DNA of 64,000 nucleotides from an uncultured Planctomycetota bacterium. GTDB lineage: Bacteria > Planctomycetota > PLA2 > JAEUHO01. Shown here piece after piece: positions 3,206 to 33,835 of this stretch (within the stretch, counting starts at the first letter, position 1; every line of letters starts with the position of its first letter). The translations under genes were made by a program, and so were the position numbers. Location: the NCBI GenBank assembly GCA_963752285.1, contig CAVVXN010000001.1:32001-96000 (forward strand), written 5' to 3'. The notes below the pieces were generated by a model, which searched no databases, had not been told where the DNA came from, and saw only the letters and a list, made by a program, of their open reading frames with translations.

Positions 3206-3667
3206 CGCGCACTGATCGCAGGACCGCGACGCGACAGCTCGGTCGCCAGTACCCGCGTGCTCTTGCACGTCCAGCGCAGACGGGACATTGGGTCGCCGCG
3301 CGTGCTCGGCTCGATCAGGTCCTCCAACCGGTTGGCGAGCGAGGGATCCAGGTCCCGTGCACGCTTGCGCCCGCCCCCGGGTCGTCGAATGCGGCCTTCT
3401 TCGAGCGCGACACCGTCCTCCACGTCCCGGATGCCGCGCGAGACCGTCGAGCGGGAGACCTTCGTGGCTCGCACAACCGCGGCGATCCCGCCGCGACCCA
3501 GCGCCAAGGCCTCGGCCGCAGCGAAGATGCGCTGGCTGCGCTCATCCAGCACGGCGCGCAGCATGCGGTAGCGCGCTCGAACGGCCTTGACGTCGTCGCT
3601 CGCGGTCACGCCCCATGAGATCGGATCTGCCGAGCGATTGCTTCAGTTATTTCGTAGCAGGCCCTTA
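3206..3667 (-). mobile_element. ISAzo13-family (Rhodopirellula-type DDE) transposase 5' fragment with probable left end
   Basis: ORF 3136-3609 has LDERSQRIFAAAEALALGRGG...RIRRPGGGRK...TRGDPMSRLRWTCKSTR; probable IS end near 3647-3667; C-terminal DDE part missing. Confidence 0.85.
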
Positions 3668-15886: not shown

Positions 15887-16552
15887 CTACTTATCGCATC
15901 TAACCTCGAAGTCAGCCTCGGCAACCCACTCGACCACGCCGACACTCCCGCGCCCGATCGGACCCGGGTTCAGGTCGTAGCGCACGTTTCTTGGGGCATC
16001 CAACTCTCGGAAGATAGTCCCGCACTCCACCGAGTCGACCCGAACATGATCGGCGAAGGGGAATGACCCCTCAGGAATCCACTCCCCCTCCCCTCCCTCG
16101 ACGGCACCGGAGAGGGTGTACTCCAGACTGGCCACGCCACTTGCATCCGTGGTTCCGATGGCCCATCCATCTCCAGCGATCTCGCCCGAGGCGCGGGACA
16201 ACTGGATAGACCTCCGGATGGCTTCAACAGCCTCTTCCCTTGCACGAGCCAAAGGGGATGCCACGACGCGGGCATCGGCCACGGGGCGTCCGCTGGCGTC
16301 GATCACGTGGATGCGTACCCGCACGAGCACCGTCCCCGAGCCGACGAATACGCGCTTGCGCCCGCCGACGTCGCGTGAACCGATGCGGAAGCCGGTGGTG
16401 AAGAGCGCCACTCCAGCGATGGCAGCGACGAGCACGACTGAGAGAGCAACCCACGCCCATCGCCCCATCAGCCAACAACTCCGTCCATATTCGCCGCCGC
16501 GCGGACGCGCATCGCTCGAGGGCGCCGGCCCGTTCCGGGTGGAACTGCTCAT
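15887..16552 (-). CDS. Putative immunity protein, family Y (TM plus beta-sandwich)
   Basis: Follows the toxin tip; homologous to 25048-25644 (VRVRI..DA..RPVA.ARV, VRVD...CGT..EL, VAEA.F.V.C); start could be 16468. Confidence 0.65.
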   Translation of the reverse strand: MSSSTRNGPAPSSDARPRGGEYGRSCWLMGRWAWVALSVVLVAAIAGVALFTTGFRIGSRDVGGRKRVFVGSGTVLVRVRIHVIDASGRPVADARVVASPLARAREEAVEAIRRSIQLSRASGEIAGDGWAIGTTDASGVASLEYTLSGAVEGGEGEWIPEGSFPFADHVRVDSVECGTIFRELDAPRNVRYDLNPGPIGRGSVGVVEWVAEADFEVRCDK

Positions 16553-16565
16553 GCTTTGGGCCCCC

Positions 16566-18431
16566 TCACCGTGCCCACCCTCGCAACGCGTTCGCCGTAT
16601 CCACGATGGACCGAGCGGCGTTCCGGTCGACGCGCTGCCACTCGCTCGACCCTTGCGGGACACCCCCTCTACCTGGATCTGCTGGATGCTCACGGAACTC
16701 AAGTGGCCCCTGCTCAGCGTGACGGACTTCATGCAATACCACACCCACCACCTTTGCTTCCCCGAGCCAGTCACCGTTATTGAATTTGTCCGCCATCTTG
16801 TCCATAAACGAGGTCTTGAAGCGCAGTTCGCCCGATTCAGGGTCGTACTCGCCCTCCGCCCTCGGATCCTGTTGCGCGAGCTCTGGCACTGTTTTAAACC
16901 TGCCATTCTCCAGGAGCGATTCGGCGTGCGCAATCCACTCTGACTTGCCGTTGCCAAACGCCACGGCGTCCAATCGAGCCAGTCGGAGGAGGTCCGCATC
17001 CGAGATCGGCCCACTCGTAGGCACCGCCCCGTGGCCGCCCATGAGCTCCCACATGTTCTGTGCTGCCGCGTGAAATTCGGCTTCGGCGGCATCCAGTGCG
17101 TCCTCAAGGGGGTCGAGAACGGCGATCGCATCATCGACCGCTTGCCACGCATCCGCTTGCTTCGCCCTCGCGTCCTTCAGGGCCGCCTTCAACTCGGCCA
17201 GCTTCTTGTTATCCTCCGCCGGGTCGTAGCACTCATCCTCCGCCTTCTTCTTGATCAGCTCCTCTAGATCGTGGATCTGCTTCTCGAGAGCGAGGGCTGC
17301 GCCCCCTGCGGCGTACGCTGCGTCCAAAGCCGCGAGGTAGGCGTTGTATGCCGCTTCCTCAGCCTTTTGAGCTTTCAGGAGCGCCTGGCCCGCATCACGA
17401 AGCCACTCGACTGGCTTGTTCTCCTTGTCCTTCGGCGCAAGCCCCGAGGGATCGGCGGACGATGCTGGGTCCGATCCGACGTACTCGTGGAGGGACAGCC
17501 CCCCGACGAATCCGGCGGGATCCCTCTGGAGGAACCGCCCGGTGGCCGGGTCGTACGCGCGCGCGCGGAACTAGTAGGTCTTCGTCTCGGCGTCGTACTC
17601 CCGCCCCGTGAAGAGGAACGGGTTCCCCACCGCGCTTTGCGAAACGACCGTCCCCTGTGAGCCGCGGATCGTCGGTTGGCCGTAGACGTCATAGGTCGTC
17701 CACTCGACGACCGCACCGCTCGGTTGCGTGATCTCCGTGACGTCGCCCCTCGCGCTCTGGGCGTAGGTGAAACGCAGGATCTCGCTCGTGTTCCCGTTGC
17801 CGTTGACGTCAGCACCGTCGGCTCGATCCATCGCTCGCGGCTGGTCGATCCCGTCCTCGTAGACATAGCGGGCTTGCCAGACGTCCTGCCCGTCGTACTC
17901 CTCGACGACCTGCTGACCGTCGAGCGCGTAGCGGGTCGTCGCGCCGCCGGAGACGGCCTTCTCGACACGCCGCCCGAGCGCGTCATAGCGGTAGGTCGCG
18001 ATCACGGCCTGCGTCGCCTTGAGCTTCACCTCGACCAGCCGGTTCTCGAAGTCGTAGGCGAAGAGGTACGTCCCGTCGTCCTTGAGGTTCCCGTTGTTGT
18101 CGTGGGTCCGGGTGACGCCGCCGACCTGGGTGTACTGGTTGACCACGTCCGAAGCGTACGTCACGGTCGAGGGCGGGGTCGGCGGGGTCGTGAGCGTCTG
18201 GCTCCGGTTCCCGAGGCCGTCCAGCACGTACTGGGTGTTCTTGGCGAAGGTCTGGCTCCCCGGGTTCTGGACCTCCTGGAGGGGGCTCGTGGTGTCGTAG
18301 CGGACGTCCGTCAGCCGGTACGCCCAGTCGTAGGCGTAGACGCCCCCCTTGGTGTTTCGGGCCGCGAGGAAGGTCTGGACGGCCTGCGGGAGCGTCCCGA
18401 CCCAGGTCGCGTCGAAGGTGTTCTGCTCCAT
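16566..18431 (-). pseudogene. Orphan Rhs core with family-Y HExxH toxin tip and an in-frame TAG
   Basis: ORFs 17571-18431 and 16566-17327 share a frame; TAG at 17571-17573 replaces an aromatic codon of the core; reading continues FRARAYDPATGRFLQRDP...DPSGL...VLHEVRHAE. Confidence 0.85.
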
Positions 18432-19693: not shown

Positions 19694-19996
19694 CTACACG
19701 CTCCCCGTGGGTTCCGCGTCACCGTAGCCCGCTCGGCGCGCGCGGTCTGGATGGTAGGTGCGCATCCACTGGCGCGCGGCCTCGTGCATCGCCCGACCGT
19801 TGGCCGAGCCACCCCACCCCAACTCGTTGTAGATCCGGACGAGATCCGCCGGGCTGGACTTCGCCAGCCATGCGACGACGAGTCGTGACATGTCACCGTA
19901 GATCGTGCTCTGGTCCTGGTAGGCCTCTCCGTCGGCGGTGTGGATCTCCGCCAGCATGCGCGCGAAGACCTCGCGCTCCGTGAAGTTTCGCGACAT
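19694..19996 (-). CDS. Hypothetical protein, 100 aa
   Basis: ATG with GGAGGAG RBS; protein-like composition MSRNFTEREVFARMLAEIH... Confidence 0.6.
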   Translation of the reverse strand: MSRNFTEREVFARMLAEIHTADGEAYQDQSTIYGDMSRLVVAWLAKSSPADLVRIYNELGWGGSANGRAMHEAARQWMRTYHPDRARRAGYGDAEPTGSV

Positions 19997-20545
19997 GAGA
20001 TCGACTCCTCCGGTCGGTTCCGATGATCCTCGGGCGACGCCTACACGCGCCCCAGCCCCCGGGTGCGTCGTCCGGAAGCGCGCCACGGGCGACAGCGTAC
20101 AGCGAAGCGCCCCCCGGGAGCTTCCGAGCCAATGACCGGCCGCGCCCGGGCGCGCGGCCGCCGGCCTACCGGCCTCCCGCGATCTCCTCCACGTCGTCGT
20201 CGTCGCGCGTAGCACGCGGGGCCGGACGGCGCGCACCGGCGAGGCGGCGGCGCCGGCGGGGGCGGTAACGGCGGCCGTAAATCCGTACACGCGTCAATGC
20301 GGCCGCGGCGTCGCCGCCGCGGAAGGGTCACGCGACCGAACTCGCCGGCGCGCCGCGATTGGCAGGCGGGGCGAAACCGAGCCGCAGAAGCTGCGTGACT
20401 TGGGTCGCCACTCGAGACGGTCTCCTGACGCTTCCTCGCACTTCGCTGCACGATGTAAGCGAGCGCGGGTGGATCCGCGTTATCGAAGAGGATCGCCGCA
20501 AACGTGCGACGACGCGCGAGTTGCGGCGAGGAGGCGCAACGAAGG

Positions 20546-20595
20546 TGGAGCGCCCGATCGGGCTCGAACCGACGACATTCAGCTTGGGAAGCTGA
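20546..20595 (-). repeat. att site: 3' portion of tRNA-Gly
   Basis: 50-bp match to 32538-32587 with 1 mismatch (20563). Confidence 0.95.
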
Positions 20596-20831
20596 GTGCC
20601 CCGACTCGTAAGTCGCGCGCAGTACAGGAGTTACAGATCTTGAGAATGGCCACTGGGACGGATCCTATCGATTTCCAGAGGAACGACCTGCTACGGTGTC
20701 CTGCGAGCCGTTCCGTGCGTTTCGGATTTTGAGAATGGCCGGTGCCGGCCCGCTGGCCGCCAGGGGGCCCACGAAGCGCCGTGGGTCGGTGGCTACAATC
20801 CGGGAACGTCCCCTCGCACCCGGAGACATCC

Positions 20832-21044
20832 ATGAAGTTCCGCATCGTGATCGAACCCGACGAGGATGGGGTCTTCGTGGCGAGTTGCCCGAGTCTCCCG
20901 GGCTGCCATTCGCAGGGCCGGACCCGGGAGGAGGCGCGCGCCAACATCCAGGAGGCGGTCGAGCTCTACCTGGAGTCGCTCCGGGAGCACGGGGAGCCGA
21001 TCCCGCCCGGGATCACGGAGGACGTGGTCGAGGCATCCGGTTGA
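20832..21044 (+). CDS. hicB: HicB-family antitoxin
   Basis: MKFRIVIEPDEDGVFVASCPSLPGCHSQGRTREEA..NI.EA; TACAAT -10-like element at 20794. Confidence 0.9.
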   Translation: MKFRIVIEPDEDGVFVASCPSLPGCHSQGRTREEARANIQEAVELYLESLREHGEPIPPGITEDVVEASG

Positions 21045-21097
21045 GCCGGCTCCCGGTGGTCTCCGGCCGCGAGGCCGTTCGGGCGTTCGCGAGGATC
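21041..21097 (+). pseudogene. hicA: HicA toxin, first ~19 codons only
   Basis: TTG start overlapping the hicB stop, SRLPVVSGREAVRAFARI, then unrelated sequence. Confidence 0.7.
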
Positions 21098-21224
21098 TCC
21101 GAGCTGGTGGAGAGCATTGGCGGCCGTATCCACTATGACGACATCGACATGTCCGTGCACACTGGGACGATCTACGTCCACGGAGAACAAGACTTCGACA
21201 TCGTCCTTCCTGAGTTTCAGGCGC

Positions 21225-21590
21225 CTCCGACACCGCGAGACATGATCTGCACGACGATCCTGGTCCGGGCTTCCCGGCCCGTTCACGCATCCCCCGGCCT
21301 GATCGCGGCGGCCGCCGCGTCGCCTCGGTGCCGAGTACTCGGCGGAATCGTCCAGAAGGAACTGGCACACACCTCGGGCGGATATCGCGGCCGCTACCCG
21401 ATATCTCGGCTCCGGGAGCCCCTTCCTTTCGCGCCCATCCGCTCTAAACCACTGCCATCACGGCACTTGCACGTCGTCCAAGAGTAGCCACACCCAACTG
21501 AGAAGCAGCACCCGGTACAAGTCGAACGAAACGTTTCGTTCGAACTGAGAAGAAGCAGAGTCTCGTCGCCCTCCGTCCGCCCCTACTTGG
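21225..21590. repeat. ~365-bp non-coding repeat (second copy 30068-30433) containing the IS right-end motif and a 22-bp palindrome
   Basis: About 6 differences between copies by eye; TCGAACGAAACGTTTCGTTCGA at 21522-21543. Confidence 0.9.
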
Positions 21591-22071
21591 ATCCTTCGCG
21601 GCGCGCCAGTAGGTGCACTTTGATGACTCTGCGGGTCGCCCCTCCCGAATCCGAAGCCGACCCCTCGATTGTGCTGGCCGCACCCACATTGACCCATCCG
21701 TCCTTGTACTCCGGTTCAGGATCGCCAGAAACTCTGAATCTCCACCCGCCGAGCCGAATGGTCTTAGTGCGCGCGCGCCAATACCACTCAAGCACATAAG
21801 GACCGAGGGAAAGGAACTCGTAACCTGTCCCATCCCATCGGTCAGTCTGCCCCGGGTCCGTCAACCTCCTAATGGCGTAAAGAAGACCCTCGACGGGAAG
21901 AAACTCGACGGGAGAGGATGAGGCTGGAATCAAGGGACTGGGACTCACGGGAGGAGCGTGCTGGGGAACATCGGCGCAGGTCAGCCCATGGCCGCGGCCA
22001 ATCCAATACCCAACGCCCCCGGCCAACAGTACGGCCGTGGCAGAGATGATCCCGATCGCTCTGTGCGTCAA
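21583..22071 (-). CDS. Putative immunity protein, family X
   Basis: Overlaps the toxin stop; N-terminal TM; paralog of 30426-30914. Confidence 0.75.
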   Translation of the reverse strand: MTHRAIGIISATAVLLAGGVGYWIGRGHGLTCADVPQHAPPVSPSPLIPASSSPVEFLPVEGLLYAIRRLTDPGQTDRWDGTGYEFLSLGPYVLEWYWRARTKTIRLGGWRFRVSGDPEPEYKDGWVNVGAASTIEGSASDSGGATRRVIKVHLLARREGSK

Positions 22072-23318
22072 TCGTCCCTCCTTCGCCTCGCGCGCGCCTC
22101 GTCGTCGCTTCCAGAAGTTCCCTCACGCTCATGGCGCGCCTTCTCGTCCTTCCTACTCTCGTCTTCTCTCAATCCCGCTCTGTTGGCGTCGCCCTCAGAT
22201 CCCAGTTGATTGACGTCCTCTTCGCTCGTGCCATCCTGTACGTATTCCTCTCCCACGTCCGCCCCCATTGACTCAGCCAATTCCTCCTCGTCGACCACGT
22301 GCCCGTATTCATGATCAAGCAACTTGTCATTGCCCTCCGGATACAGGATGACCAGCCGGCGGAGGCGGGATCGCCACTGCATCTTGTGATAGCCAGGGCG
22401 ATTGCAGGGTTCGACCGACCACTCGTGCCACCAGTCTGACAACGTTCGTGCGTCAACAAGCGTGCCCTCCTCTCCATCGGGATGTTCTGTCCCGATTGGA
22501 TCGGCCGCGCTCTCCGGAATCGGCTCCTCGTCCGGGTGCTCCTCGTTGTACTCTTGGATAGCCTCCCGAGCGTTCTCACGAGACTGCTTGGGATCATTGC
22601 TTCGCTCGTAAGGAACCCTAGTCACAGGCGCCAAGCCCGAGGGGTCTACCCTAATCGTTGGCGTTGATGCCACGTATTCGAAGAGGTTGATTCCTTCCGC
22701 GCAGCCTGCGGGATCCCTCTGCAAGAGCCTACCAGTAGCCGGATCATAACTTCTGTCGCGGTAGTAGTAGAGCCCGTCCTCCGGATCGTACTCCCGCCCC
22801 GTGAAGAGGTACGGGTTCCCGTCCGGGCTCTGGGCGACGGCGGTCCCCTGCTGGCCGAGGATCGTCGGCTTCCCGTACACGTCGTACGTCACCCATTCGA
22901 CGACGCTCCCCCCGGGCTCGGAGATCTCGGTCACCGACCCCAGCGCCTGCTGGTGGTACGTGAAGCGAAGCACCTCGCTCGTGTTCTGGTTTCCGTTCAC
23001 GTCCGCCTGATCCGCCCGGTCCATGACGCGTGGGCGGTCGATCCCGTCCTCGTAGACGTAGCGCGCCTGCCAGACGTCCTGCCCGTCGTACTCTTCGACG
23101 ACCTGCTGTGCGTCGAGCACGTAGCGCGTCGTCGCGCCGCCCGACACGGCCTTCTCGACCCGCCGGCCCGGCGCATCCGTCGTGCTGCGGGTCGAGACTG
23201 TCCTGCGGGCGCGAGGCGCCGCCGTGCGTCCCGACCGCGGACCTGCCCCGAATTCGGCCATCGAGAGGATGCTATCGCCCCTCGGGTCGGTGCGCCAAGG
23301 TGACGCCGTGGAGGGCAT
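22068..23318 (-). CDS. Orphan Rhs core with family-X HExxH toxin tip
   Basis: GRRVEKAVSGG...PYLFTGREYD...DPSGL then LLDHEYGHVVDEE; ATG 23318 lies in the leader. Confidence 0.85.
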   Translation of the reverse strand: MPSTASPWRTDPRGDSILSMAEFGAGPRSGRTAAPRARRTVSTRSTTDAPGRRVEKAVSGGATTRYVLDAQQVVEEYDGQDVWQARYVYEDGIDRPRVMDRADQADVNGNQNTSEVLRFTYHQQALGSVTEISEPGGSVVEWVTYDVYGKPTILGQQGTAVAQSPDGNPYLFTGREYDPEDGLYYYRDRSYDPATGRLLQRDPAGCAEGINLFEYVASTPTIRVDPSGLAPVTRVPYERSNDPKQSRENAREAIQEYNEEHPDEEPIPESAADPIGTEHPDGEEGTLVDARTLSDWWHEWSVEPCNRPGYHKMQWRSRLRRLVILYPEGNDKLLDHEYGHVVDEEELAESMGADVGEEYVQDGTSEEDVNQLGSEGDANRAGLREDESRKDEKARHEREGTSGSDDEARARRRRDD

Positions 23319-23692
23319 GTGGATGCGACTTCGTTGCGGGCCCGCTTGGGGCGGCTGTCGTCGAGCGGGCGGCGGTCGGGTGGAAGCGGTCCGAGTCTGG
23401 CCAGCCTGGCTGCCTCCGTTGACTGCGCGATGGAGCCGCCCCGTCCCAAGTCCGCGCGCGACGCGGCATCCGAAGGTCGCCTGGGTCCTCGGCCTTCCAT
23501 CTTGCGGTCGGGTGCGTCGCGACTTGTGACGCCAGATGCTGGCGCCCTTGGAGCACAGTTGAGACGGTTTCTTGACCTTTCGTTGCCGCTCGTTGCGCTT
23601 TGTCAGGAACGGACGGCCTCGGCGCCGCGCTCGTATCGGGCGCCGCAACGTGGCAACGACGCGCAGGTTGCGGCGAGGAGGCGCAACGAGGG

Positions 23693-23745
23693 TGGAGCGC
23701 CCGATCGGGTTCGAACCGACGACATTCAGCTTGGGAAGCTGACGC
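23693..23745 (-). repeat. att site: 3' portion of tRNA-Gly
   Basis: 53-bp exact match to 32538-32590. Confidence 0.95.
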
Positions 23746-24018
23746 ACGCGAGTCGTAAGTCTAGCCCCAACCAGGGGTTACGGATCTTGAGAATGGCCAC
23801 TGTGACGTACTTTGTCGATTCCTCCAGGATCGACCTGCTACGGTGTCCTGCGGGCCATTCTGTGCGTTGGGGAAGTTGAGAGTGGCGCCCGGGGCGGGGC
23901 GTGACGCGTCCCCCCCCCTCCGACCGACCACGGGACCCGGGTGCGTGCTGCACGGCTCGCTTGCCTGACCCGCTCCGCGGGGATCGGCGCATCCTCGGAC
24001 GGTATACTCGCCAGCGCC

Positions 24019-24264
24019 GTGCCCATCCTCTCCTACACCGTCCTCTACGAGCCGCAGCCGGACGGCGGGTTCACCGTGCTCGTGCCGGCGTTGCCCGGTT
24101 GCGTCACCGAGGGCGACACGATCGAGGAGGCCCGGCGCATGGCCGCCGATGCCATCCGCGCCTACTGCGAGAGCCTCCTCCAGGATGGCGAGCCCCTGCC
24201 CCCCGACGTCCCGGAGCCCCCGCGTCACGAGCGGATCGAGGTCTCTCTCGCCGGCAGCCGCTGA
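24019..24264 (+). CDS. hicB: HicB-family antitoxin
   Basis: YTVLYEPQPDGGFTVLVPALPGCVTEGDTIEEARRMAADAI; TATACT at 24003. Confidence 0.9.
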   Translation: MPILSYTVLYEPQPDGGFTVLVPALPGCVTEGDTIEEARRMAADAIRAYCESLLQDGEPLPPDVPEPPRHERIEVSLAGSR

Positions 24265-24267
24265 TCC

Positions 24268-24495
24268 ATGGCGGCCCTGCCCGTCCTCCGGCCGCGCGCG
24301 GTCGTAGCCGCCCTGGAGCGAGCCGGGTACGTCGTCCATCACCAGACGGGTAGCCATGTCGTTCTCAAGCACCCGCGACCCCCTGCGCGGCGCGTGGTGG
24401 TGCCGATGCATGGACGCGATCTCAAGAGAGGCACGCTCCGGAGTATCCTCCGCGAGGCCCAGCTGACGGTCGAGGCGTTCATCGATCTGCTCTGA
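24268..24495 (+). CDS. hicA: HicA-family mRNA interferase toxin
   Basis: ALERAGY..HQTGSHVVLKH...VVVPMHGRDLKRGTLRSILREA. Confidence 0.92.
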   Translation: MAALPVLRPRAVVAALERAGYVVHHQTGSHVVLKHPRPPARRVVVPMHGRDLKRGTLRSILREAQLTVEAFIDLL

Positions 24496-24659
24496 TTCGT
24501 GAGCGTCCGGGAGAGCGCCCGCTTGGCGACCCAGTCGTGCTCAAACAAGTTGGCTGCGCTCCGGGAGGACGTCGTCGATCCCACACCACCCACGTTCGCG
24601 CGCTGCTCGAGAAGAAGCGTCGCGGCGAGCGCGACGTGGTCGTGAACCGCTTCCTGGCC

Positions 24660-25035
24660 CTCCCGCACTCCGCCTTTCGCGGAGAGACTCCCGACGACGT
24701 CTACTTCGGGACCGGCGACCACGTCCCGGAGCTCCTCGCCACCCGGCGCCGCGAAGCCCGTGCCGCCGGCCTCGCCGCGAACCGCGCCGCGCGATGCGGG
24801 GTGTGCAGCGCCTGACGACACCGAGGAGGAGGAACCCGACACGGCGGGTCCTATGCCCGGTCGGCCCGACTGGGGGGCGCCGCCGCCACACTTACACACG
24901 CCACGGCCGTCATCGCGGCGGGAGATCCGCGGCCCGGATGTTCGAGTCCTCGGCAGAAATCTCCAGAAGGGATTGACACGCAACACGGCTACATACCGTC
25001 CTCCCTTCCCAAGTTGACGTGGCGCACCTGACACA
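24660..25035 (+). mobile_element. rve-type transposase 3' remnant plus right-end motif
   Basis: LPHSAFRGETPDDVYFGTGDHVPELLATRRREAR..LAANRAARCGVCSA* (stop 24815); motif at 24941-24982. Confidence 0.75.
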
Positions 25036-25047
25036 CAGCAGGGCTTT

Positions 25048-25644
25048 CTATTCATTGCAATGCACGACGAACTCCGCTTCCGCCACTGGCAGACGTCCAG
25101 TTGGCGTCGTAATCCGTCGATAGTGAATGCTCCTGCCGTCGCCCAGCTCTTGCAGCACGGTCCCGCAACTGCGGGCATCGACTCGAACGTAGGCGCCAAA
25201 GACAAATGGCTTCCGTGCCGAGTCCTGCTCATCATCGAAGAGCGGATCGTCACTCTCAGTGAGTCGCGTGAATTCCAGCTCGACGGCGCCGTCTTGACCC
25301 GTTTTTCCGATCGCGCACGTCCATGCCCTCTCGCCCTGAGCAAGCCTGAATTCGATCGCCCTGCGGATACTCTCGACGTCCTCTTCGGTTCGCATCACAT
25401 CCTTCGTCGGGGCCACCATTACACGCGCGCCAGCAACGGGTCTATTCCGCGCGTCGCGCAAGAGTATTCTGACTCGCACGAGGGCCGTCACTGTAACGCA
25501 ACGCGACATCCGCCTCAGACCCCCGTCCGGCTGCGGGCGACTCCGAAGCGCCTCGCCCGCAAGGAGCAGTACAGTGACCAACCCCATTACTCCTAAGACG
25601 ACAAGTAGCCGCCTTCTCCCGCCGCCAATCGCTCTGCTAGCCAC
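25048..25644 (-). CDS. Putative immunity protein, family Y
   Basis: Homologous to 15887-16552; GTG 25644 with RBS, overlapping the upstream ORF stop. Confidence 0.7.
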   Translation of the reverse strand: MASRAIGGGRRRLLVVLGVMGLVTVLLLAGEALRSRPQPDGGLRRMSRCVTVTALVRVRILLRDARNRPVAGARVMVAPTKDVMRTEEDVESIRRAIEFRLAQGERAWTCAIGKTGQDGAVELEFTRLTESDDPLFDDEQDSARKPFVFGAYVRVDARSCGTVLQELGDGRSIHYRRITTPTGRLPVAEAEFVVHCNE

Positions 25645-26569
25645 CGTGCGACTCTCTCTCCGCCGCACATGCAGCGCAGTCGAGCCTTGCACGGAACACT
25701 CGGTGGATCTCGTTGCTTCGTGCTGCGCTCCGCGAGATCCGGGGGACATTCGGCAACATGGCTGCCGGTTTGCTGGCGGTGGCCATGACGGGTTGTAGCT
25801 GGCTGGGACAACGCCCAATCCGAGAGAACTCGTCCGTAGCGCGCTCCCAGGTGCGCTTCCTCATGCCCGGCGGCGTTCGATGCCGACCCAAAGCAGTTGC
25901 AGTCTCCGTCGAAGTCCGGATTGCCATATTCGGCACGACCCCTTCAAAGCGAATGCTCATCAGGCTCATCGCTCGGCTCCTGACGTCACCACCTGTTGTT
26001 GTGCATCCGCCCAGAGTGGGGCGCTCGCCCAAACGCCCCTGCGGAGTAAGGACGGCTATGAGGTCTTCCGCACGCCTCCCACCCGATCGTGAGCCGTCAG
26101 TCAGATCCTCGGGCATAGTAGACCTGTACTGGGCAAAGCTCTGCTGTCCATCGACAGCATGGTACACAATTTGACTTAGCCGCGCTACGGCAATGCTAGA
26201 TCCTCCGCAAACCGTTGGTGATATTGCCGACCGGAAGTTCCTCCTCTCGAAGTCGGCCCCCTTGCCTGCGTAGATGGCCATTCCTCGAGTCGGCCCCGAT
26301 GCGGACCCAGTACGCAGGTCCTTGCGCGCCGGCCTCCAGTGCAGCGTGAAAAGCGCTGTGTCTAGGCGCAGCATCTCATCAACTTCTTCGGCTTGTGACC
26401 CTGTCACCGCGGGTAGGGGGGTTCGAAATGACGGCACTACAGGACGGCGGCCCGGCGAACCGAGGCCCGCCGGCACCGGGCACATCGCCGACGCTGTGGA
26501 GAGTAGCAGGCCCCTCCCGCACGAGCGGGAGTCCGGCTTTCGTTGCGACGCAGGAAAAAGCACAGACAC
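25637..26569 (-). CDS. Hypothetical protein between toxin tip and immunity gene
   Basis: 310-codon ORF abutting both neighbours in a lower-GC stretch; no recognisable motif. Confidence 0.35.
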   Translation of the reverse strand: MSVLFPASQRKPDSRSCGRGLLLSTASAMCPVPAGLGSPGRRPVVPSFRTPLPAVTGSQAEEVDEMLRLDTALFTLHWRPARKDLRTGSASGPTRGMAIYAGKGADFERRNFRSAISPTVCGGSSIAVARLSQIVYHAVDGQQSFAQYRSTMPEDLTDGSRSGGRRAEDLIAVLTPQGRLGERPTLGGCTTTGGDVRSRAMSLMSIRFEGVVPNMAIRTSTETATALGRHRTPPGMRKRTWERATDEFSRIGRCPSQLQPVMATASKPAAMLPNVPRISRSAARSNEIHRVFRARLDCAACAAERESHGG

Positions 26570-26570
26570 A

Positions 26571-28067
26571 TCACCTTCCCCTTTGGGCCCGGTGCACTAT
26601 TTGCTCTATGCCAAGTCCGCTGGACTGGTCAGCGTCGTGCCAGCCACTCTGCCCGCCCCTGGGGGCGTCTCGCTCTGAATCCGCCGGATGCCCGCTCCGC
26701 CCGTCCTCGTGCTCCTCCGCATAGTGCCTGCCCTCATGTAACAGCGTCTCTAGGAGATCGCTCTCCCCCCAGTGCTCCCAGGTGGTCACGGCGTTATCTA
26801 CCGACGAGTACGGTATCCACATCACACCGTCAGAGTACGCTCCCATTGCGTGCTTACCTTCCACCAGAAAGACGGGGTCCGAGTCGGGCGCAAGCGTCAT
26901 TAGACCATTCTCCATAGCATCGTGAACCCATTTCGGGCCGAAGTCGAGGAGGTCCTGCCTCACCATGTCGAGAATGTCTTGTCGTGTCGGCTTGACGCCA
27001 CTTCCATTTAGATCATTTCTGGCGGCATTGAATGTCGCCAGAGCGGCATCGTACGCCGCCGCGGCTTCATCGTAGGCCGTCTGCGCCGCACTGGCGGCTC
27101 GATTGGCCGCATCACGGTCCTCTTTGGCCTTCTGCAGGGCGTCCCACAGATCGTCCAGCTCAGAGTCTCTACCACGAACAAGCGGACCCACATCGCTGCA
27201 TCTGCGCTTCTTGCATGCTGCCTTCCATGCCGAAAGGGCAATGTCATAAGCCTTCTGCGCCGCAGCCGCTTCCTCCTTCGCCTTCTCCAGCGCATCTGAT
27301 GCTCTCGTGTACGCCTTGTAGGCCGCATTGAGCTTTGCGCGCGCAGCAAGTAGCGCCTGCACTTTGGGGTCCCTTGTTTCGAGGCCGAGGGGGTCGACAG
27401 CTGTACAGGGGGCGCTCGTCGTGTACTCGTATGCAGATGGGCCGTCCACATACCCGGCTGGATCGCGCTGCTGAAAGCGCCCGGTGGAAGGATCGTAGAC
27501 TCTCGTCCGGAAGTGGAACTTCCCATCTTCGGCGTCGTACTCCCGCCCCGTGAAGAGGTACGGGTTCCCGTCCGGGCTCTGGGCGACGGCGGTCCCCTGC
27601 TGGCCGAGGATCGTGGGCTTCCCGTACACGTCGTACGTCACCCACTCGACGACGCTCCCACCGGGCTCGGAGACCTCCGTCACCGATCCCAGCGCCTGCT
27701 GGTGGTACGTGAAGCGGAGCACCTCGGTCGTGTTCTGGTTCCCGTTCACGTCCGCCTGGTCGGCCCGGTCCATGACGCGCGGGCGGTCGATCCCGTCCTC
27801 GTAGACGTAGCGCGCCTGCCAGACGTCCTGCCCGTCGTACTCTTCGACGACCTGCTGTGCGTCGAGCACGTAGCGCGTCGTCGCGCCGCCCGACACGGCC
27901 TTCTCGACCCGCCGGCCCGGCGCATCCGTCGTGCTGCGGGTCGAGACTGTCCTGCGGGCGCGAGGCGCCGCCGTGCGTCCCGACCGCGGACCTGCCCCGA
28001 ATTCGGCCATCGAGAGGATGCTATCGCCCCTCGGGTCGGTGCGCCAAGGTGACGCCGTGGAGGGCAT
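26571..28067 (-). CDS. Orphan Rhs core with family-Y (coiled-coil plus HExxH) toxin tip
   Basis: Rhs core ...DPLGL, Ala-rich coiled coil, LLHEGRHYAE...HPAD; related to the tip at 16566. Confidence 0.85.
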   Translation of the reverse strand: MPSTASPWRTDPRGDSILSMAEFGAGPRSGRTAAPRARRTVSTRSTTDAPGRRVEKAVSGGATTRYVLDAQQVVEEYDGQDVWQARYVYEDGIDRPRVMDRADQADVNGNQNTTEVLRFTYHQQALGSVTEVSEPGGSVVEWVTYDVYGKPTILGQQGTAVAQSPDGNPYLFTGREYDAEDGKFHFRTRVYDPSTGRFQQRDPAGYVDGPSAYEYTTSAPCTAVDPLGLETRDPKVQALLAARAKLNAAYKAYTRASDALEKAKEEAAAAQKAYDIALSAWKAACKKRRCSDVGPLVRGRDSELDDLWDALQKAKEDRDAANRAASAAQTAYDEAAAAYDAALATFNAARNDLNGSGVKPTRQDILDMVRQDLLDFGPKWVHDAMENGLMTLAPDSDPVFLVEGKHAMGAYSDGVMWIPYSSVDNAVTTWEHWGESDLLETLLHEGRHYAEEHEDGRSGHPADSERDAPRGGQSGWHDADQSSGLGIEQIVHRAQRGR

Positions 28068-28441
28068 GTGGATGCGACTTCGTTGCGGGCCCGCTTGGGG
28101 CGGCTGTCGTCGAGCGGGCGGCGGTCGGGTGGAAGCGGTCCGAGTCTGGCCAGCCTGGCTGCCTCCGTTGACTGCGCGATGGAGCCGCCCCGTCCCAAGT
28201 CCGCGCGCGACGCGGCATCCGAAGGTCGCCTGGGTCCTCGGCCTTCCATCTTGCGGTCGGGTGCATCGCGACTTGTGACGCCAAATGCTGACGCCCTTGG
28301 AGCACAGTTGAGACGGTCTCCTGACGCTTCCTTGCGCTTCGCTGCACGATGTAAGCGAGCGGACGCGGAGTCGCGCGATCGTAGAGCAACGCCCTAAGCG
28401 TGCAAGGACGCGCAGGTTGCGGCGAGGAGGCGCAACGGGGG

Positions 28442-28490
28442 TGGAGCGCCCGATCGGGTTCGAACCGACGACATCCAGCTTGGGAAGCTG
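28442..28490 (-). repeat. att site: 3' portion of tRNA-Gly
   Basis: 49-bp match to 32538-32586 with 1 mismatch (28475). Confidence 0.95.
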
Positions 28491-28717
28491 CCGCGAGTCG
28501 GTCGTAAGTCGCGGCCCACCAGCATCTTACGGATCTTGAGAACTGCCACTGTGACGGATTCTGTCGAAACCCCCAGGATCCACCTGCTACGGTGCCATGC
28601 GGGCCGTTCCAGGCGTTCCGGAAGTTGAGAACGGGGGCGCAGGGCCCCCCGAGCCCGAGGTGCGCCGACCTCCCTCGGGCAGGGGTCACCACCTCCCGCA
28701 GAGTAGGATCGCCACTC

Positions 28718-28945
28718 ATGGACTACCGCGACCGGATCACCATCGACCCCACGCGTCGCGCCGGAAAGCCCTGCATCCGGGACCTGCGGATCACGGTCTA
28801 CGACGTCCTCGAGTACCTCGCCTCCGGCATGACCGAGGCGGAGATCCTCGCGGACTTCCCCGACCTCGAGGCCGAGGATGTCCGGGCGTGCCTCGCGTAC
28901 GCCGCGGATCGAGAGCGCAAGTTCTCCTCCATCCCGCCGCGGTGA
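28718..28945 (+). CDS. DUF433 antitoxin
   Basis: RITIDP...GKPCIRDLRITVYDVLEYLASGMTEAEILADFPDLEAEDVRACLAYAA. Confidence 0.92.
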   Translation: MDYRDRITIDPTRRAGKPCIRDLRITVYDVLEYLASGMTEAEILADFPDLEAEDVRACLAYAADRERKFSSIPPR

Positions 28946-28949
28946 CGAC

Positions 28950-29282
28950 CTGCGCCTCCTGCTGGACCAGAACCTGTCGCCTCGCTTGGCACGGGCACTC
29001 GAAGACGTGTACCCGGGAGCCGTCCACGTGAGAGATGTCGGCTTGGCCCACGCGAGCGACACGGCAGTCTGGGACCACGCACTGGCCCGCGACCTGATCA
29101 TCGTGTCCAAGGACGCGGACTTCCACCAGCGGATCTTCCTCTCGGCTCCGCCGCCGAAGGTAATATGGATCCGCCTGGGCAACTGCACGACGAACGAGAT
29201 CGAGGCCCTCCTCCGGCAGCACGAACACGCCATTCGTGAGTTCGCCGACGATGCGACGGCCGCCTTCCTCGCCGTGGGGTAA
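28950..29282 (+). CDS. DUF5615 PIN-like toxin (expected start codon reads CTG)
   Basis: RLLLDQNLS...HVRDVGL..ASD..VW..A...IIVSKDADF...PPKVIWIRLGNC. Confidence 0.85.
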   Translation: MRLLLDQNLSPRLARALEDVYPGAVHVRDVGLAHASDTAVWDHALARDLIIVSKDADFHQRIFLSAPPPKVIWIRLGNCTTNEIEALLRQHEHAIREFADDATAAFLAVG

Positions 29283-29335
29283 CAGCGAGCGGAGCGGCGC
29301 GGTCTGCGCGGGCCGAGCGCCTCGCCACCGCCTCC

Positions 29336-29740
29336 TACGTCTCCGAGCACAACTCGAAGATCCCACACTCGGCCTTCCAGCGGCAGACCCCGGACGCAGC
29401 GTACTTCGGCACGAGCGCCCACGTCCCCGAGCTCCTCGCCGCGCATCGCCGCGAGGCTCGTGCCCCCTGGCTCGCGGCCAATCGCGCGGCACGATGCAGG
29501 GTGTGCTCCGCCTGACGACACCGAGGAGGACCTCCGCCCACCTGAGCCCCATGCACGGTCGGCGCGAACGCGGGTGCCACCGTCTCGCTCACGCCCTCCG
29601 CCGCCGGATCGCGGCAGGGGGACCCGCGGCCCCGGTGTTCGAGTACTCGGCAGATTTCTCCAGAAGGGATTGGCACGCACCTCGGCTCCATGCCGTCCTC
29701 CCTTCCCAAGTTGACGTGGCGCACTTGACACGCAACTCCG
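29336..29740 (+). mobile_element. rve-type transposase 3' remnant plus right-end motif
   Basis: YVSEHNSKIPHSAFQRQTP...CRVCSA* (stop 29515); motif at 29638-29680. Confidence 0.75.
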
Positions 29741-29872
29741 GCCTGCGCCCGACACAGGTTGACGTCCGGCGCGGGCCAACGTGCCCCTACCTGGGTTCAC
29801 GAGACGGATACCGGAAGGAACTGGCACACACCGCCGCGGATTCCGTATGCTCCGCCGATGCACCGAGCGTGC

Positions 29873-30215
29873 TACGTCTCCGAGCCCAACGCCAAGATCC
29901 CGCACTCGGCCTTCCAGGGCCAGACTCCGGACGAGGTCTACTTCGGCACCGGCGACCACGTCCCCGAGCTCCTCGCCACCCGGCGCCGCGAAGCCCGTGC
30001 CGCCCGCCTCGCCGCCAACCGCGCTGCGCGATGCGGGGTGTGCACCGCCTGACGACACCGAGGAGGACCTCCGACACCGCGAGACATCATCTGCACGACG
30101 ATCCTGGTCCGGGCTTCCCGGCCCGTTCACGCATCCCCCGGCCTGATCGCGGCGGCCGCCGCGTCGCCTCGGTGCCGAGTACTCGGCGGAATCGTCCAGA
30201 AGGAACTGGCACACA
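29873..30215 (+). mobile_element. Second tandem rve-type transposase 3' remnant plus right-end motif
   Basis: YVSEPNAKIPHSAFQGQTPDEVYFGTGDH...CGVCTA* (stop 30052); motif at 30176-30215. Confidence 0.75.
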
Positions 30216-30425
30216 CCTTGGGGGGATATCGCGGCCGCTACCCGATATCTCGGCTCCGGGAGCCCCTTCCTTTCGCGCCCATCCGCTCTAAACCACTGCC
30301 ATCACGGCACTTGCACGTCGTCCAAGAGTAGCCACACCCAACTGAGAAGCAGCACCGGTACAAGTCGAACGAAACGTTTCGTTCGAACTGAGAAGAAGCA
30401 GAGTCCCGTCGCTCTCCGTCCGCCC

Positions 30426-30914
30426 CTACTTGGGTCCTTCTCGACGCGCCAGCAGGTGCACTTTGATGACTCTGCCGGCCGCTCCTGCCGACTCCGAAGC
30501 CGACCCCTCGATCGTGCTGGTCGCACCGACATCGACCCACCCGTCCTTGTAGTCCGGTGCAGGATCGCGAGAAACCTTAAATCTCCACCCGCCGAGCCGG
30601 ATGGACTTCGTCCGCGCGCGCCAATACCAATCACCCACATGAGGCCCCAGGGAGAGGAACTCGTATCCCGTCCCATTCCATGCGCCACTATGCCCGGGAT
30701 CCGTCAGCTGCCGAATGGCGTGGAGAAGACCCTCGACTGGGAGAAACTCAACCGGAGAGGATGAGGCTGGAATCAAAGCATTGACTCTAGCAGGAGGGGC
30801 GCTCGGGGGAACTTCGACACAGGTCAGTCCGTGGCCCCGGCCAATCCAATACCCCACGCCCCCCGCCAATAGGACGGCCGTGGTAGCGAGGATCGCAAGC
30901 GCTCTCTGCATCAA
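30426..30914 (-). CDS. Putative immunity protein, family X
   Basis: 162 aa; roughly 77% identical (manual count) to 21583-22071. Confidence 0.75.
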   Translation of the reverse strand: MMQRALAILATTAVLLAGGVGYWIGRGHGLTCVEVPPSAPPARVNALIPASSSPVEFLPVEGLLHAIRQLTDPGHSGAWNGTGYEFLSLGPHVGDWYWRARTKSIRLGGWRFKVSRDPAPDYKDGWVDVGATSTIEGSASESAGAAGRVIKVHLLARREGPK

Positions 30915-32161
30915 TCGTCCCTCCTGCGCCTCTCGCGTGCCTCGTCGTCGCTTCCGGCCGTACCGACACGCTCATGGCGCCTCTTCTCGTCCTTTCTGCT
31001 CTCTTCCTTCCTCGAGTCGGCTCTGTTGGCGTCGCCGGCAGCTCCCAGTTGACTTGCGTCCTCGCCACTCGTGCCATCTTGTACGTATTCCTCGCCCACG
31101 TCCATCCCCATTGACTCAGCCAACCTTTCCTCGTCGACCACGTGCCCGTATTCGTGATCAAGCAACTTGTCGTCGCCCTCCGGATATAGGATGACAAGCC
31201 GGAGGAGCCTGGATCGCCACTGCATCTTGTGATAGCCAGGGCGATTGCAGGACTCGATCGACCACGTGTGCTCCCAGTCTGGCCACGTGAGCGCGTCGAC
31301 AAGCGCGCCCTCCTCTCCATCCGGATGTTGTGTCCCAATGGGATCGGCAGCGCTCTCAGGGATCGGCTCCTCGTCCGGGTGTTCATCGTTATAGTCATGG
31401 ATGGCCTCACGAGCATTCTCTCGATCCTGCTTAGGGTCACCGGTGCGTTCGTAAGAAATTCTCGTCACAGGTGCCAAGCCTGACGGGTCAGCCTTAACTG
31501 TTGGCGTAGAGGTCACGTATTCGATAAGATTGAAGCCTTCCGAGTATCCTGAAGGATCTCTTTGCACGAATCGGCCGGCGGAGGGGTCATATGTCCTCGC
31601 CCTATAAAAGTACAGCCCATCCTCGGCGTCGTACTCCCGCCCCGTGAACAGGTACGGGTTCCCGACCGGGCTCTGGGCGACGGCGGTCCCCTGCTGGTCG
31701 AGGACCCTCGGCTTCCCGTACACGTCGTACGTCACCCACTCGACGACGCTCCCGCCCGGCTCCGAGAGCTCCGTCACCGACCCCAGCGCCTGCTGGTGGT
31801 ACGTGAAGCGGAGCACCTCGGTCGTGTTCTGGTTCCCGTTGACGTCCGCCTGGTCGGCCCGGTCCATGACGCGCGGGCGGTCGATCCCGTCCTCGTAGAC
31901 GTAGCGGGCCTGCCAGACGTCCTGGCCGTCGTACTCCTCGACGACCTGCTGTGCGTCGAGCACATACCGGGTCGTCGCGCCGCCCGACACGGCCTTCTCG
32001 ACCCGCCGGCCCGGCGCATCCGTCGTGCTGCGGGTCGAGACTGTCCTGCGGGCGCGCGGCGCCGCCGTGCGTCCCGACCGCGGACCTGCCCCGAATTCGG
32101 CCATCGAGAGGATGCTATCGCCCCTCGGGTCGGTGCGCCAAGGTGACGCCGTGGAGGGCAT
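30911..32161 (-). CDS. Orphan Rhs core with family-X HExxH toxin tip
   Basis: Same length and architecture as 22068-23318; LLDHEYGH. Confidence 0.85.
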   Translation of the reverse strand: MPSTASPWRTDPRGDSILSMAEFGAGPRSGRTAAPRARRTVSTRSTTDAPGRRVEKAVSGGATTRYVLDAQQVVEEYDGQDVWQARYVYEDGIDRPRVMDRADQADVNGNQNTTEVLRFTYHQQALGSVTELSEPGGSVVEWVTYDVYGKPRVLDQQGTAVAQSPVGNPYLFTGREYDAEDGLYFYRARTYDPSAGRFVQRDPSGYSEGFNLIEYVTSTPTVKADPSGLAPVTRISYERTGDPKQDRENAREAIHDYNDEHPDEEPIPESAADPIGTQHPDGEEGALVDALTWPDWEHTWSIESCNRPGYHKMQWRSRLLRLVILYPEGDDKLLDHEYGHVVDEERLAESMGMDVGEEYVQDGTSGEDASQLGAAGDANRADSRKEESRKDEKRRHERVGTAGSDDEARERRRRDD

Positions 32162-32537
32162 GTGGATGCGACTTTATTGCGGGCCCGCTTGGGGCGGCTG
32201 TCGTCGAGCGGGCGGCGGTCGGGTGGAAGCGGTCCGAGTCTCTCCAGCCCCTGGCTGCCTCCGTTGACTGCGCGGTGGAGCCGCCCCGTCCCAAGTCCGC
32301 GCGCGACGCGGCATCCGAAGGTCGCCTGGGTACTCGGCCTTCCATCTTGCGGTCGGGTGCGTCGCGACTTGTGACGCCAGATGCTGACGCCCTTGGAGCA
32401 CAGTTGAGACGGTCTCCTGACCTTTCGTTGCCGCTCGTTGCGCTTTGTCAGGAACGGACGGCCTCGGCGCCGCGCTCGTATCGGGCGCCGCAACGTGGCA
32501 ACGACGCGCAGGTTGCGGCGAGGAGGCGCAACGAGGG
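32020..32537. repeat. Conserved cassette leader (copies ~23177-23692 and ~27926-28441; partial at 20414-20545 and 15232-15310)
   Basis: Near-identical ~520-bp blocks with a GAGACGGTCTC dyad and a GTTGCG-N9-CGCAAC hairpin next to att. Confidence 0.9.
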
Positions 32538-32613
<76 letters not shown>

Positions 32614-32800
32614 TCGAAATCGTCGGCCGCGGAGCCTAGACCTGCCCCCGGGTCGTGTCAAGGCGGGCCGGGCGCCTCGGCCCGATTGCACGGCGCCGAG
32701 GCGCACGGCGGGCCCGCCGGCCGCTTCCCACACGGTCGCACCTCGCGCCCGCGCCGTCGCCCGCGCACGGACGAGGCGGGCGGGCGAGTGCGTCGCGGGG

Positions 32801-33271
32801 TCAGGCGGAGCGGTCCCCGTGCACCAGGATCACCGGCAGGTTCTCCTTGCGCACCATCTCGGTCGCGACCGAGCCCATCAGGATCCGGCTGAGCCCCGTG
32901 CGACCGTGTGTCGCGAGCACGATCGTGTCGGCGCCGACGCGACGCGCGGTTTCCTCGATCGTATCGGGGACGCTCACCGCGTGGACCAGGTGGTACTCGG
33001 TCCGCACCCCGCGCGCCACCGCGGTCTCCGGCGGCAGTCGATGGAGCTGCTTCTTCACACGATCCTCGCCCGCCGCCCGCTCCTCCTCCGTCGGGACGTA
33101 GCCCTGGACGTACTGGTTGTAGAGCGGGTTCCCGACGAACGGCGGCTCGGCCACGTGCAGCAGGTGGACGGTACCCCCCGACCCGGTCAAGTGGTAGGCG
33201 ACGGGCACCGCGAGGTTGCCCACCTCCGAGAGATCCGTCGGACAGAGGACGGTGTGGAAGGGAACTCGCAT
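32801..33271 (-). CDS. Universal stress protein
   Basis: VLCPTDLS...HLLHV...ADTIVLATHGRTGL..ILMGSVA. Confidence 0.92.
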   Translation of the reverse strand: MRVPFHTVLCPTDLSEVGNLAVPVAYHLTGSGGTVHLLHVAEPPFVGNPLYNQYVQGYVPTEEERAAGEDRVKKQLHRLPPETAVARGVRTEYHLVHAVSVPDTIEETARRVGADTIVLATHGRTGLSRILMGSVATEMVRKENLPVILVHGDRSA

Positions 33272-33298
33272 CGGCGTCTCCTCGAGTCCCGGTCGAGA

Positions 33299-33835
33299 TC
33301 AGGCCCCCAGCGCGTCGAGGATCTCCATCGCGCTGATGAGACCCACATTGCGCCCGTTCTCCTGGACGAGCACGCGGTGGATCCGGTGCTCCGCCATCAC
33401 CCCAGCGATCTCCTTCAGGCCGGCGTCGGCGGAGACACTGAAGATCTGACCGGTCATCACGTCCTCGGCCGTGTCCTCCGACTCGTCGGGGACATCGAAC
33501 GAATCGAAGTCCTCCTCGAGCATCTCCTCGGAGGACAGGTGGTAGAAGCCGTGACCCCGACGCGGCCGCGAGTCCGGGTCCTCGGCGTACCGCTCGATGA
33601 GGTCGCGGACGGAGACGATACCGATGATGCGCCCTGCCTCGTCGGTCACGGGAGCGCCGCTGATGCGGTTGTCGCTCAGGATCCTCTCGACCTCGCTCAG
33701 GGGCGTCGCGTACGGGACCGTGATGACCTCGGTGCGCATGATGTCGCGCGCCGTGACCAGCCCCCAGCGCTCGACCACCGCCTTCGGGGTCGGCCAGGGC
33801 TGGGCAGCGGGCTCGTGCACGGGTTTCGGTGTCAT
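33299..33835 (-). CDS. CBS-domain protein
   Basis: ARDIM...ISGAPVTDEAGRIIGIVS...AEDVMT...IHRVLV. Confidence 0.9.
   Translation of the reverse strand: MTPKPVHEPAAQPWPTPKAVVERWGLVTARDIMRTEVITVPYATPLSEVERILSDNRISGAPVTDEAGRIIGIVSVRDLIERYAEDPDSRPRRGHGFYHLSSEEMLEEDFDSFDVPDESEDTAEDVMTGQIFSVSADAGLKEIAGVMAEHRIHRVLVQENGRNVGLISAMEILDALGA

Follow-up and report, generated by a model that had tools for sequence, protein, structure and literature searches.

Recombination in the rhs core is described as the means by which C-terminal (CT) tip/immunity units are exchanged (PMC10539506; PMC3967940), and in esaG arrays intergenic blocks are reported to be more alike than the adjoining immunity genes (PMC9484751). 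Here we examine a 64,000-nucleotide (nt) stretch of DNA from an uncultured Planctomycetota bacterium (GenBank GCA_963752285.1), hereafter the window, which corresponds to G000:C1:32001-96000, G000 being an assembly of 5 contigs (89% complete) and C1 one of these contigs. The window's left half belongs to a longer Rhs array, the end of which is marked by a tRNA-Gly(CCC) gene (32538-32613). Two orphan Rhs units of this array, u1 (21225-23745) and u3 (30069-32590), have near-identical flanks around a diverged cargo that consists of an Rhs tip and a small partner gene, as a preliminary description made from the sequence had claimed. Both are mosaic orphan Rhs cassettes, and we favor, with moderate confidence, the view that a unit was recently copied and that one copy, probably u1, later took up a diverged cargo allele of outside origin in place of its own.

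Flanks and cargo with separate histories

A BLAST comparison of the window with itself aligned 21224-23745 to 30068-32590 at 89.6% identity over 2524 nt. The downstream block of u1 (21225-21582) has 5 mismatches and 1 gap in 358 nt relative to u3, in agreement with the roughly six differences first reported, and the leader (23178-23692) has 10 mismatches and 2 gap columns in 515-517 nt. Taken together, the flanks differ at 15/872 sites (1.7%, confidence interval 1.0-2.8), as compared with 173/1056 sites (16.4%) in the cargo (Fisher p 2e-31). The partner genes differ at 82 of 486 nt and at 38 of 162 residues, the same figure that had been counted by hand, with a synonymous divergence (dS) of 0.38 and a ratio of nonsynonymous to synonymous divergence (dN/dS) of 0.34. 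The Rhs tips, which had been said to differ similarly, do so at 34 of 190 residues and 91 of 570 nt (dS 0.50, dN/dS 0.21). Many of the changes are synonymous, as the preliminary description had also noted, with 50 of 145 four-fold sites in the cargo differing. Both cargo alleles, A in u1 and B in u3, are old and under purifying selection.

Identity between u1 and u3 is not uniform but breaks sharply. The best segmentation by the Bayesian information criterion has 5 segments, with outer breaks at 21562/3 and 23127/8: 21225-21562 at 99.1%, 21563-22577 at 84.3%, 22578-22785 at 69.7%, 22786-23127 at 93.0% and 23128-23745 at 98.4%. Counting inward from the non-homologous junction at 21225, the first difference is met after 19 nt, and the two units are identical between 23573 and the end of the tRNA repeat that bounds the unit. 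A simple duplication with uniform drift is ruled out by the contrast between flanks and cargo together with this five-segment profile.

Flanks and cargo travel separately, because one further unit has the cargo without the flanks and another has the leader with unrelated cargo. The first of these, u4 (C1:14325-15382), lies 18 kilobases (kb) outside the window, with neither flank present. Its cargo is 97.7% identical to that of u3 over 1008 nt (23 differences, versus 179 from u1), a divergence not distinguishable from that of the u1/u3 flanks (Fisher p 0.42), and private sites over the 1008-nt tract number 161 in u1, 5 in u3 and 15 in u4. The B tip of u4 is attached directly after u4's own DPLGL motif, the end of which is duplicated (C1:15340-15400), and this stretch is a visible non-homologous capture junction. 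The 44-codon junction segment is 55% identical between u4 and u3, and 67% between u1 and u3, and the 3′ end of the u4 partner gene matches a fifth fragment at C1:11.1-11.3 kb. As its tip is appended after its own DPLGL, with an unrelated junction segment, u4 was a recipient of allele B, not a donor. We also considered u4 as the in-genome source of the u3 cargo and rejected it, as u4 is without the 44-codon junction and 3′ end of u3.

The other unit, u2, lies between u1 and u3. It differs from u1 at 14 positions in 635 nt of distal leader and 5′ core, its cargo is unlike that of u1 and u3 beyond the core, and its P′ arm (an attachment-site, or att, arm next to the tRNA repeat) is of another type. 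The closest pair thus shifts along the 2.5 kb, from u1 and u3 in the downstream block to u3 and u4 in the cargo, u1 and u2 in the 5′ core and distal leader, and u1 and u3 again in the P′ arm. The u3/u4 pair reverses the u1/u3 pattern, with near-identical cargo and unrelated flanks. Allele A has no second copy in the assembly.

Nor does the pattern stand out as special: near-identical tracts of 200-1300 nt occur throughout the array, many of them within Rhs coding DNA; tracts of at least 96% identity in C1:1-66000 gave 89 rows, with within-region pairs counted from both sides. The two full-length rhs paralogues of the array (5861-12085 in the window and G000:C1:23997-30302) fluctuate from 74% to 100% identity along their length. 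Both have long N-terminal extensions, with about 1.3 kb at the 5′ end 100% identical and 74-99% identity elsewhere.

Make-up of the units

The array extends to the start of C1 and then, via overlapping contig ends, into C2 and C3. There are 23 Rhs core matches genome-wide in G000, and many orphan core fragments lie in the array besides the two full-length genes. The cores of those two genes are 89-91% identical in nucleotides to each other and 79-81% identical in amino acids to the orphan core, and the full-length core in the window matches PF05593. Each full-length gene is preceded by a HEAT-repeat gene and a gene of 290-315 codons, which in the window copy matches PDZ weakly; the two may form a dedicated set for export or chaperoning. 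On the coding strand, units u1-u3 are found upstream of both full-length genes. In minus-strand order, a unit runs from a tRNA-Gly 3′ repeat through a P′-like arm, leader, orphan core, tip and partner to an insertion sequence (IS)-end remnant, a toxin-antitoxin (TA) pair on the opposite strand, a P-like arm and the next repeat.

All cargo genes are on the minus strand. In u1, allele A comprises a partner open reading frame (21583-22071; 162 residues with an N-terminal hydrophobic stretch), encoding the putative immunity protein, and a tip of 190 residues with an HExxH motif, HEYGH (22068-22640), behind an orphan core fragment ending at DPxG (22641-23177), of which the 5′ 405 nt are 93% identical to u3 and 96% to u2 and the last 44 codons 67% to u3. 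Allele B in u3 comprises a partner (30426-30914; 96% nucleotide identity to u4 at G000:C1:14325-14813, 83% to u1) and a tip (30911-31483; 97.5% to u4, 84% to u1), preceded by the orphan core with an in-frame ATG extension (31484-32104). Tip and partner genes overlap by 4 nt in u1, u3 and u4. The u2 cargo (25048-28010) has an unrelated partner gene and an orphan core with a different HExxH tip (26571-28010). This second tip/partner family has several diverged members in G000 (27-37% amino acid identity), at 15887-17327 and 25048-27400 in the window and at C1:828-830 kb, C3:3-4.5 kb and C5:324-326 kb. Another locus with Rhs pieces, G000:C5:301716-329633, contains a segment of 480-1220 nt in five copies at 92-99% identity.

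The names toxin and immunity used in the preliminary description are labels taken from gene position, and neither protein matches Pfam. By analogy with known Rhs modules, the tip would be a toxin blocked by its partner. HExxH Rhs tips have been classed as Tox-MPTase types, with several in planctomycetes and mostly no named immunity protein (PMC3482391). A profile search found the tip in 1 of 39 other genomes of the order (G041), at about 30% identity, followed there by a gene of like build with an N-terminal hydrophobic stretch and no significant sequence match. Among 6 profile matches the sole real distant relative is P0005, a full-length Rhs protein with 37% identity to the tip; P0005 has HEYGH, as do the u1, u3 and u4 tips, and G041 has HEYGH and HENGH. 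We found no close relatives of the tip among 5.8 billion proteins of 334-2000 residues or in JGI metagenome contigs, where a match (L013) proved on inspection to be low-complexity and unrelated, and homologue searches with tip and partner returned this organism's copies only (the tip search covered just the longer proteins). No usable match came from the ESM Atlas. AlphaFold models were weak (pLDDT 42 and 61.5), with the HExxH motif of the tip model (61.5) under 50, and Foldseek of this weak model gave no PDB match at E<=0.001. The score of a predicted tip-partner complex was 0.01, which is no evidence either way.

The flanks are not purpose-built arms; they combine the arm of a tRNA-Gly attachment site with a start that is probably coding and with a remnant of an IS end, the last of which stands behind most Rhs modules of the genome. 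The array is anchored by the intact tRNA-Gly(CCC) gene (minus strand; ARAGORN; Rfam RF00005, 71 bits), and a displaced fragment of it ends each unit, at 20546, 23693 and 28442, with further fragments at C1:22084, C1:509 and C3:15138. The fragment at the far end of u1 (20546-20595, minus), an att-like core, is 98% identical to the 3′ 50 nt of the tRNA and has a weak Rfam tRNA match, and that at 23693-23745 (minus) is 100% identical to the 3′ 53 nt of the gene. Conserved arms lie on both sides of these repeats. The far end of u1 has a P-like arm (20596-20739, minus) on the 5′ side of its att core, globally 74-77% identical to those at 23746 and 28495; att alignments place the u2 arm at 23746-23886 (minus). 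The approximately 140 tRNA-proximal nt of the u1 leader are of a P′-like type otherwise found only beside the intact tRNA. Of the u2 leader (28011-28494, minus), which includes the tRNA-Gly fragment 28442-28494, the distal part is 98% identical to u1 and the proximal arm is of another type.

The leader had been called non-coding. This holds for 23262-23692 in u1 (minus; 9 mismatches and 2 gaps versus u3), and the corresponding u3 leader (32105-32537, minus) is an attL-side P′-like arm by att alignment. The leader is not wholly non-coding, however, because an 84-nt extension, an ATG with 28 codons in frame with the core (23178-23261 in u1, minus), recurs in the same frame in five orphan modules (u1, u2, u3, C1:827k and C3:13k); a sixth has the same ATG context. 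Judging from this shared frame, the extension is probably coding and the orphan's own start. In Salmonella, orphan Rhs tips are reported to be expressible from their own starts (PMC7043789).

The TA ends of u1, u2 and u3 are three different ones, all on the plus strand. In u1 there is a HicB-like antitoxin gene (20832-21044; PF15919), behind which lie an apparent truncated HicA start (judged by eye, with no Pfam match) and about 125 nt without a second genomic copy; in u2, a HicB-HicA pair (23941-24495; PF15919, PF07927); and in u3, a DUF433-DUF5615 (PIN-like) pair together with the far-end P-like arm at 28495-28634 (28495-29282; PF04255, PF18480). Three related genomes were chosen for showing repeated tRNA-Gly fragments, and so give no frequency. 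In G016, hicBA stands beside a tRNA-Gly fragment in the same layout, and its HicB is 89% identical to that of u1. G009 has repeated fragments and no Rhs cores in the 20 kb examined; at G009:C4:445900-459900, tandem tRNA-Gly(CCC) 3′ fragments, some at a spacing of about 210 nt, lie with a DUF433/DUF5615-like pair nearby and no Rhs core. The third, G020, is taken up below. A genome of the same genus, G001, has Rhs arrays, and the leader, downstream block and IS-end motif were absent from the stretches examined. Elsewhere in the window, an apparent integrase N-terminal piece (2863-3609; no Pfam match) is cut by an ISAzo13-type transposase fragment and adjoins a helix-turn-helix gene and an HSDR_N/RAMA gene.

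The first approximately 150 nt of the downstream block are the end of an rve/DDE IS transposase. The block spans 21225-21562 in u1, with the IS right-end motif at 21307-21377 and a 22-nt palindrome, read from the sequence, near 21522-21543, and 30069-30405 in u3, as placed by the u1/u3 alignment and segmentation. Transposase 3′-end remnants lie on the plus strand in u2 (24661-25037) and, two in tandem, at 29335-30221, the second running unbroken into the u3 block. The right-end motif occurs in the window at 3953, 15682, 21307, 24916, 29612 and 30151. No full-length IS was found in the G000 assembly, only in relatives; the motif stands behind a full-length copy in G009, and an Rhs core in that genome contains a full-length copy in convergent orientation. 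With a profile made from 8 copies we obtained 20 matches, or 18 after removal of 2 contig-overlap duplicates, and at 16 of these 18 distinct sites the remnant converges with an Rhs core end that lies 1.0-2.7 kb upstream of it, the 16 representing 13 modules that are clustered and non-independent. The idea of fixed homology arms is partly supported by this recurrent 3′ IS-end spacer, but the remnants are mostly 72-92% alike, with near-identity only in the u1/u3 pair among those compared.

How the mosaic may have formed

The proposal that cargo was swapped between the arms, or the arms homogenized, stands insofar as flanks and cargo have separate histories and recombination is needed; between import and conversion, one genome does not decide. 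In the reading we prefer, a recent copying of the segment from tRNA repeat to IS end would have been followed by double-crossover homologous recombination, in which one copy, probably u1, exchanged its cargo for a diverged outside allele. One crossover would fall in the conserved Rhs core (22786-23127) and the other at the partner gene's 3′ end (21563-21632). Judging by what is known of Rhs biology, the likely pay-off would be a larger stock of tip/partner specificities, recombinable onto the full-length rhs genes via the shared core. Replacement fits somewhat better than conversion because near-identity reaches both edges of homology, as a copy would lead one to expect and conversion tracts less so. 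Likewise, u1 looks like the derived position because its IS remnant is cut at 21225, where it is joined to the HicA-like stub, whereas that of u3 continues past the junction. Allele B already existed twice at about the time the flanks split, and allele A is single.

Several observations weigh against this order of events. No donor of allele A was found, although a resident donor may be missing, as the genome is 89% complete. The far-end P-like arms of u1 and u3 are only 74% alike, about as old as the cargo, which would fit old paralogues with converted flanks. In addition, the 5′ core of u1 resembles that of u2 (96%) more than that of u3 (93%), and the final 50 nt of the partner gene hold 0, 4 and 6 private sites in u1, u3 and u4; a single event therefore does not suffice, and the breakpoints are blurred.

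The strongest alternative, which we consider possible but clearly less probable, is that u1 and u3 are old paralogues (dS about 0.45) whose leader and downstream block were separately homogenized by gene conversion, the cargo being spared, possibly since the loss of one specificity was selected against. The 74% identity of the P-like arms matches the four-fold divergence of the cargo, the leader lies between two high-identity anchors (tRNA repeat and Rhs core), the u2 leader is itself chimeric, and conversion-like tracts are common in the array. However, conversion needs two tracts of like age in the same pair, one of them reaching the non-homologous junction at 21225, and all three far-end arm pairs tested are 74-77% alike, including that of u2 with its unrelated cargo, so arm age is not specific to the u1/u3 pair.

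The att-like boundaries raise a wider possibility, which we put forward tentatively and think rather unlikely: an integrase-fed cassette array, in which small integrase-less circles would be inserted serially at tRNA-Gly, each with an att site, a self-starting orphan Rhs tip, a partner, an IS-end spacer and a TA pair as stabilizer, the core and IS-end remnant serving as swap arms genome-wide and between strains. More doubtful still is that u1 arrived whole: a conspecific strain with allele A in its tRNA-proximal cassette would have supplied an att-bearing circle, a trans-acting tyrosine integrase would have inserted it, and the 1.7% flank difference would be strain divergence. Consistent with such an arrival, the tRNA-Gly 3′ repeat with P- and P′-like arms bounds every unit, and the u1 P′ arm is of the type found only beside the intact tRNA. 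A PF00589 integrase fragment points at another repeat of the array, at C1:22084, and its homologues in the genomes G012 and G001 adjoin tRNA-Gly 3′ fragments. In G020, of another genus, a tRNA-Gly gene and a displaced fragment stand 4.7 kb apart and enclose an orphan Rhs core, tip and partner-like gene, without anything that matches this integrase. Against it, we found only fragments of this integrase family in the G000 assembly and none at all within u1-u3, and the differing TA ends of u1 and u3 mean that copying of a whole circle was not the sole step. We also looked for att-to-att joints in short-read contigs of four soil DNA runs that had small shares of matching sequence, belong to a single study and possibly include the source sample; of 152 contig records placed on 19800-33600, 32 were listed. 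No such joint was found in the four runs, a weak test given low-depth contigs, and one joint among the listed records, 20468 to 24402 (22-nt side), was too weak and was left unused.

These contigs also bear on whether u1 and u3 are an artifact, with two strain haplotypes joined in tandem or the flanks homogenized in polishing, which we judge very improbable. Contig ends do overlap inside the array (C1:1-7607 with C2:8489-16111 at 99.2%, and C2:1-4052 with C3:1-4052 at 99.7%), which reflects either variation between strains or a repeat left unresolved, and several genes appear to carry frameshifts, so that the region is difficult to assemble. Among the listed records, however, 5 match u1 and 5 match u3 with 0 differences, each covering 1-45 sites that discriminate the two. 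Contig X2#11 joins u1-specific flank sites to u1 cargo, and X1#5 matches the u3 downstream block with 0 differences and has all 6 u3-specific sites that it covers. Three listed records have u3-specific rather than u4-specific bases, and one record, with 3 differences, covers exactly 3 sites that separate u3 from u4 and probably represents u4. At the base level, both the alleles and the flank variants are genuine, and the three different TA ends likewise argue against an artifact. None of the listed records links u1 to u3 or bridges the u3 flank well into the u3 cargo, and the linkage of u1 to u3 rests on the assembly. No RNA runs containing this sequence were among those listed.

Finally, it is hardly credible that strong selection on a structured RNA or regulatory element kept the flanks near-identical after an old duplication: the leader is partly (probably) coding and partly att arm, but Rfam scans of the flanks gave only tRNA and chance-level matches, promoter and terminator scans were at background, and identity among the homologous att arms and IS ends of the rest of the array has fallen to 72-92%.

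Comparison with described systems

The locus offers a snapshot of how a polymorphic-toxin array diversifies, with one otherwise unknown tip/partner family in three copies in one genome, and its two alleles, about 18-24% apart in protein, are a ready-made test of divergence against immunity specificity. It would carry greater weight if the att-like units are mobile cassettes, because integrase-driven accretion of whole toxin/immunity modules, suggested by analogy, is reported as unsupported for Vibrio arrays (PMC5361080).

The closest described systems are the orphan rhs-CT/rhsI modules (PMC3150448; PMC3967940; PMC10539506), which likewise have a core fragment ending in DPxG, a variable tip and a small overlapping gene, with a full-length rhs gene in the locus, and which trade tips by way of the core, their surroundings remaining homologous. 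The DPxG core, the small gene behind the tip and the full-length rhs gene are all found for u1 and u3. Unlike in those modules as described, a related allele, not an unrelated tip, would have replaced a related allele here, and u1-u3 each have a probable start of their own, a TA pair and tRNA-derived att-like boundaries. The esaG and tipC immunity arrays of firmicute type VII secretion systems (PMC9484751) also have homology blocks that span intergenic DNA, exceed the genes in likeness and act as points of crossover. They consist of a single immunity family in tandem and lack toxin tips, whereas here an unrelated unit separates the twins and the 3′ block is IS-end-derived.

In the type VI secretion effector-immunity arrays of Vibrio cholerae (PMC5361080), mosaics are reported to arise through homologous replacement and homology-facilitated illegitimate joins, and the attachment of the u4 tip after its own DPLGL looks like such a join. 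Insertion facilitated by an integrase is reported there to lack evidence, whereas att-like sites punctuate the array described here. Tandem tRNA genomic islands (Islander, PMC4383910) share the displaced 3′ tRNA fragment at each unit end and tyrosine integrase remnants nearby, but the tandem members described there each have an integrase and u1-u3 (3-5 kb) have none. The rAID-1 arrays (bioRxiv 10.1101/471110) are similar in being lower-G+C arrays of conflict genes with repeated intergenic motifs and a tyrosine recombinase in the locus; as described, they have an intact 5′ XerD-like gene and immunity genes only, whereas here the integrase is broken, each unit keeps its core and tip under purifying selection and the repeats are tRNA- and IS-derived.

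In the literature searched, with subscription journals largely outside it, we found no paper on att-bounded Rhs orphan units and no study of Rhs arrays in this lineage. The pattern itself is not new and is explained by known processes; what sets this locus apart from the described systems is that its orphans lie in integrase-less units bounded by att-like repeats.

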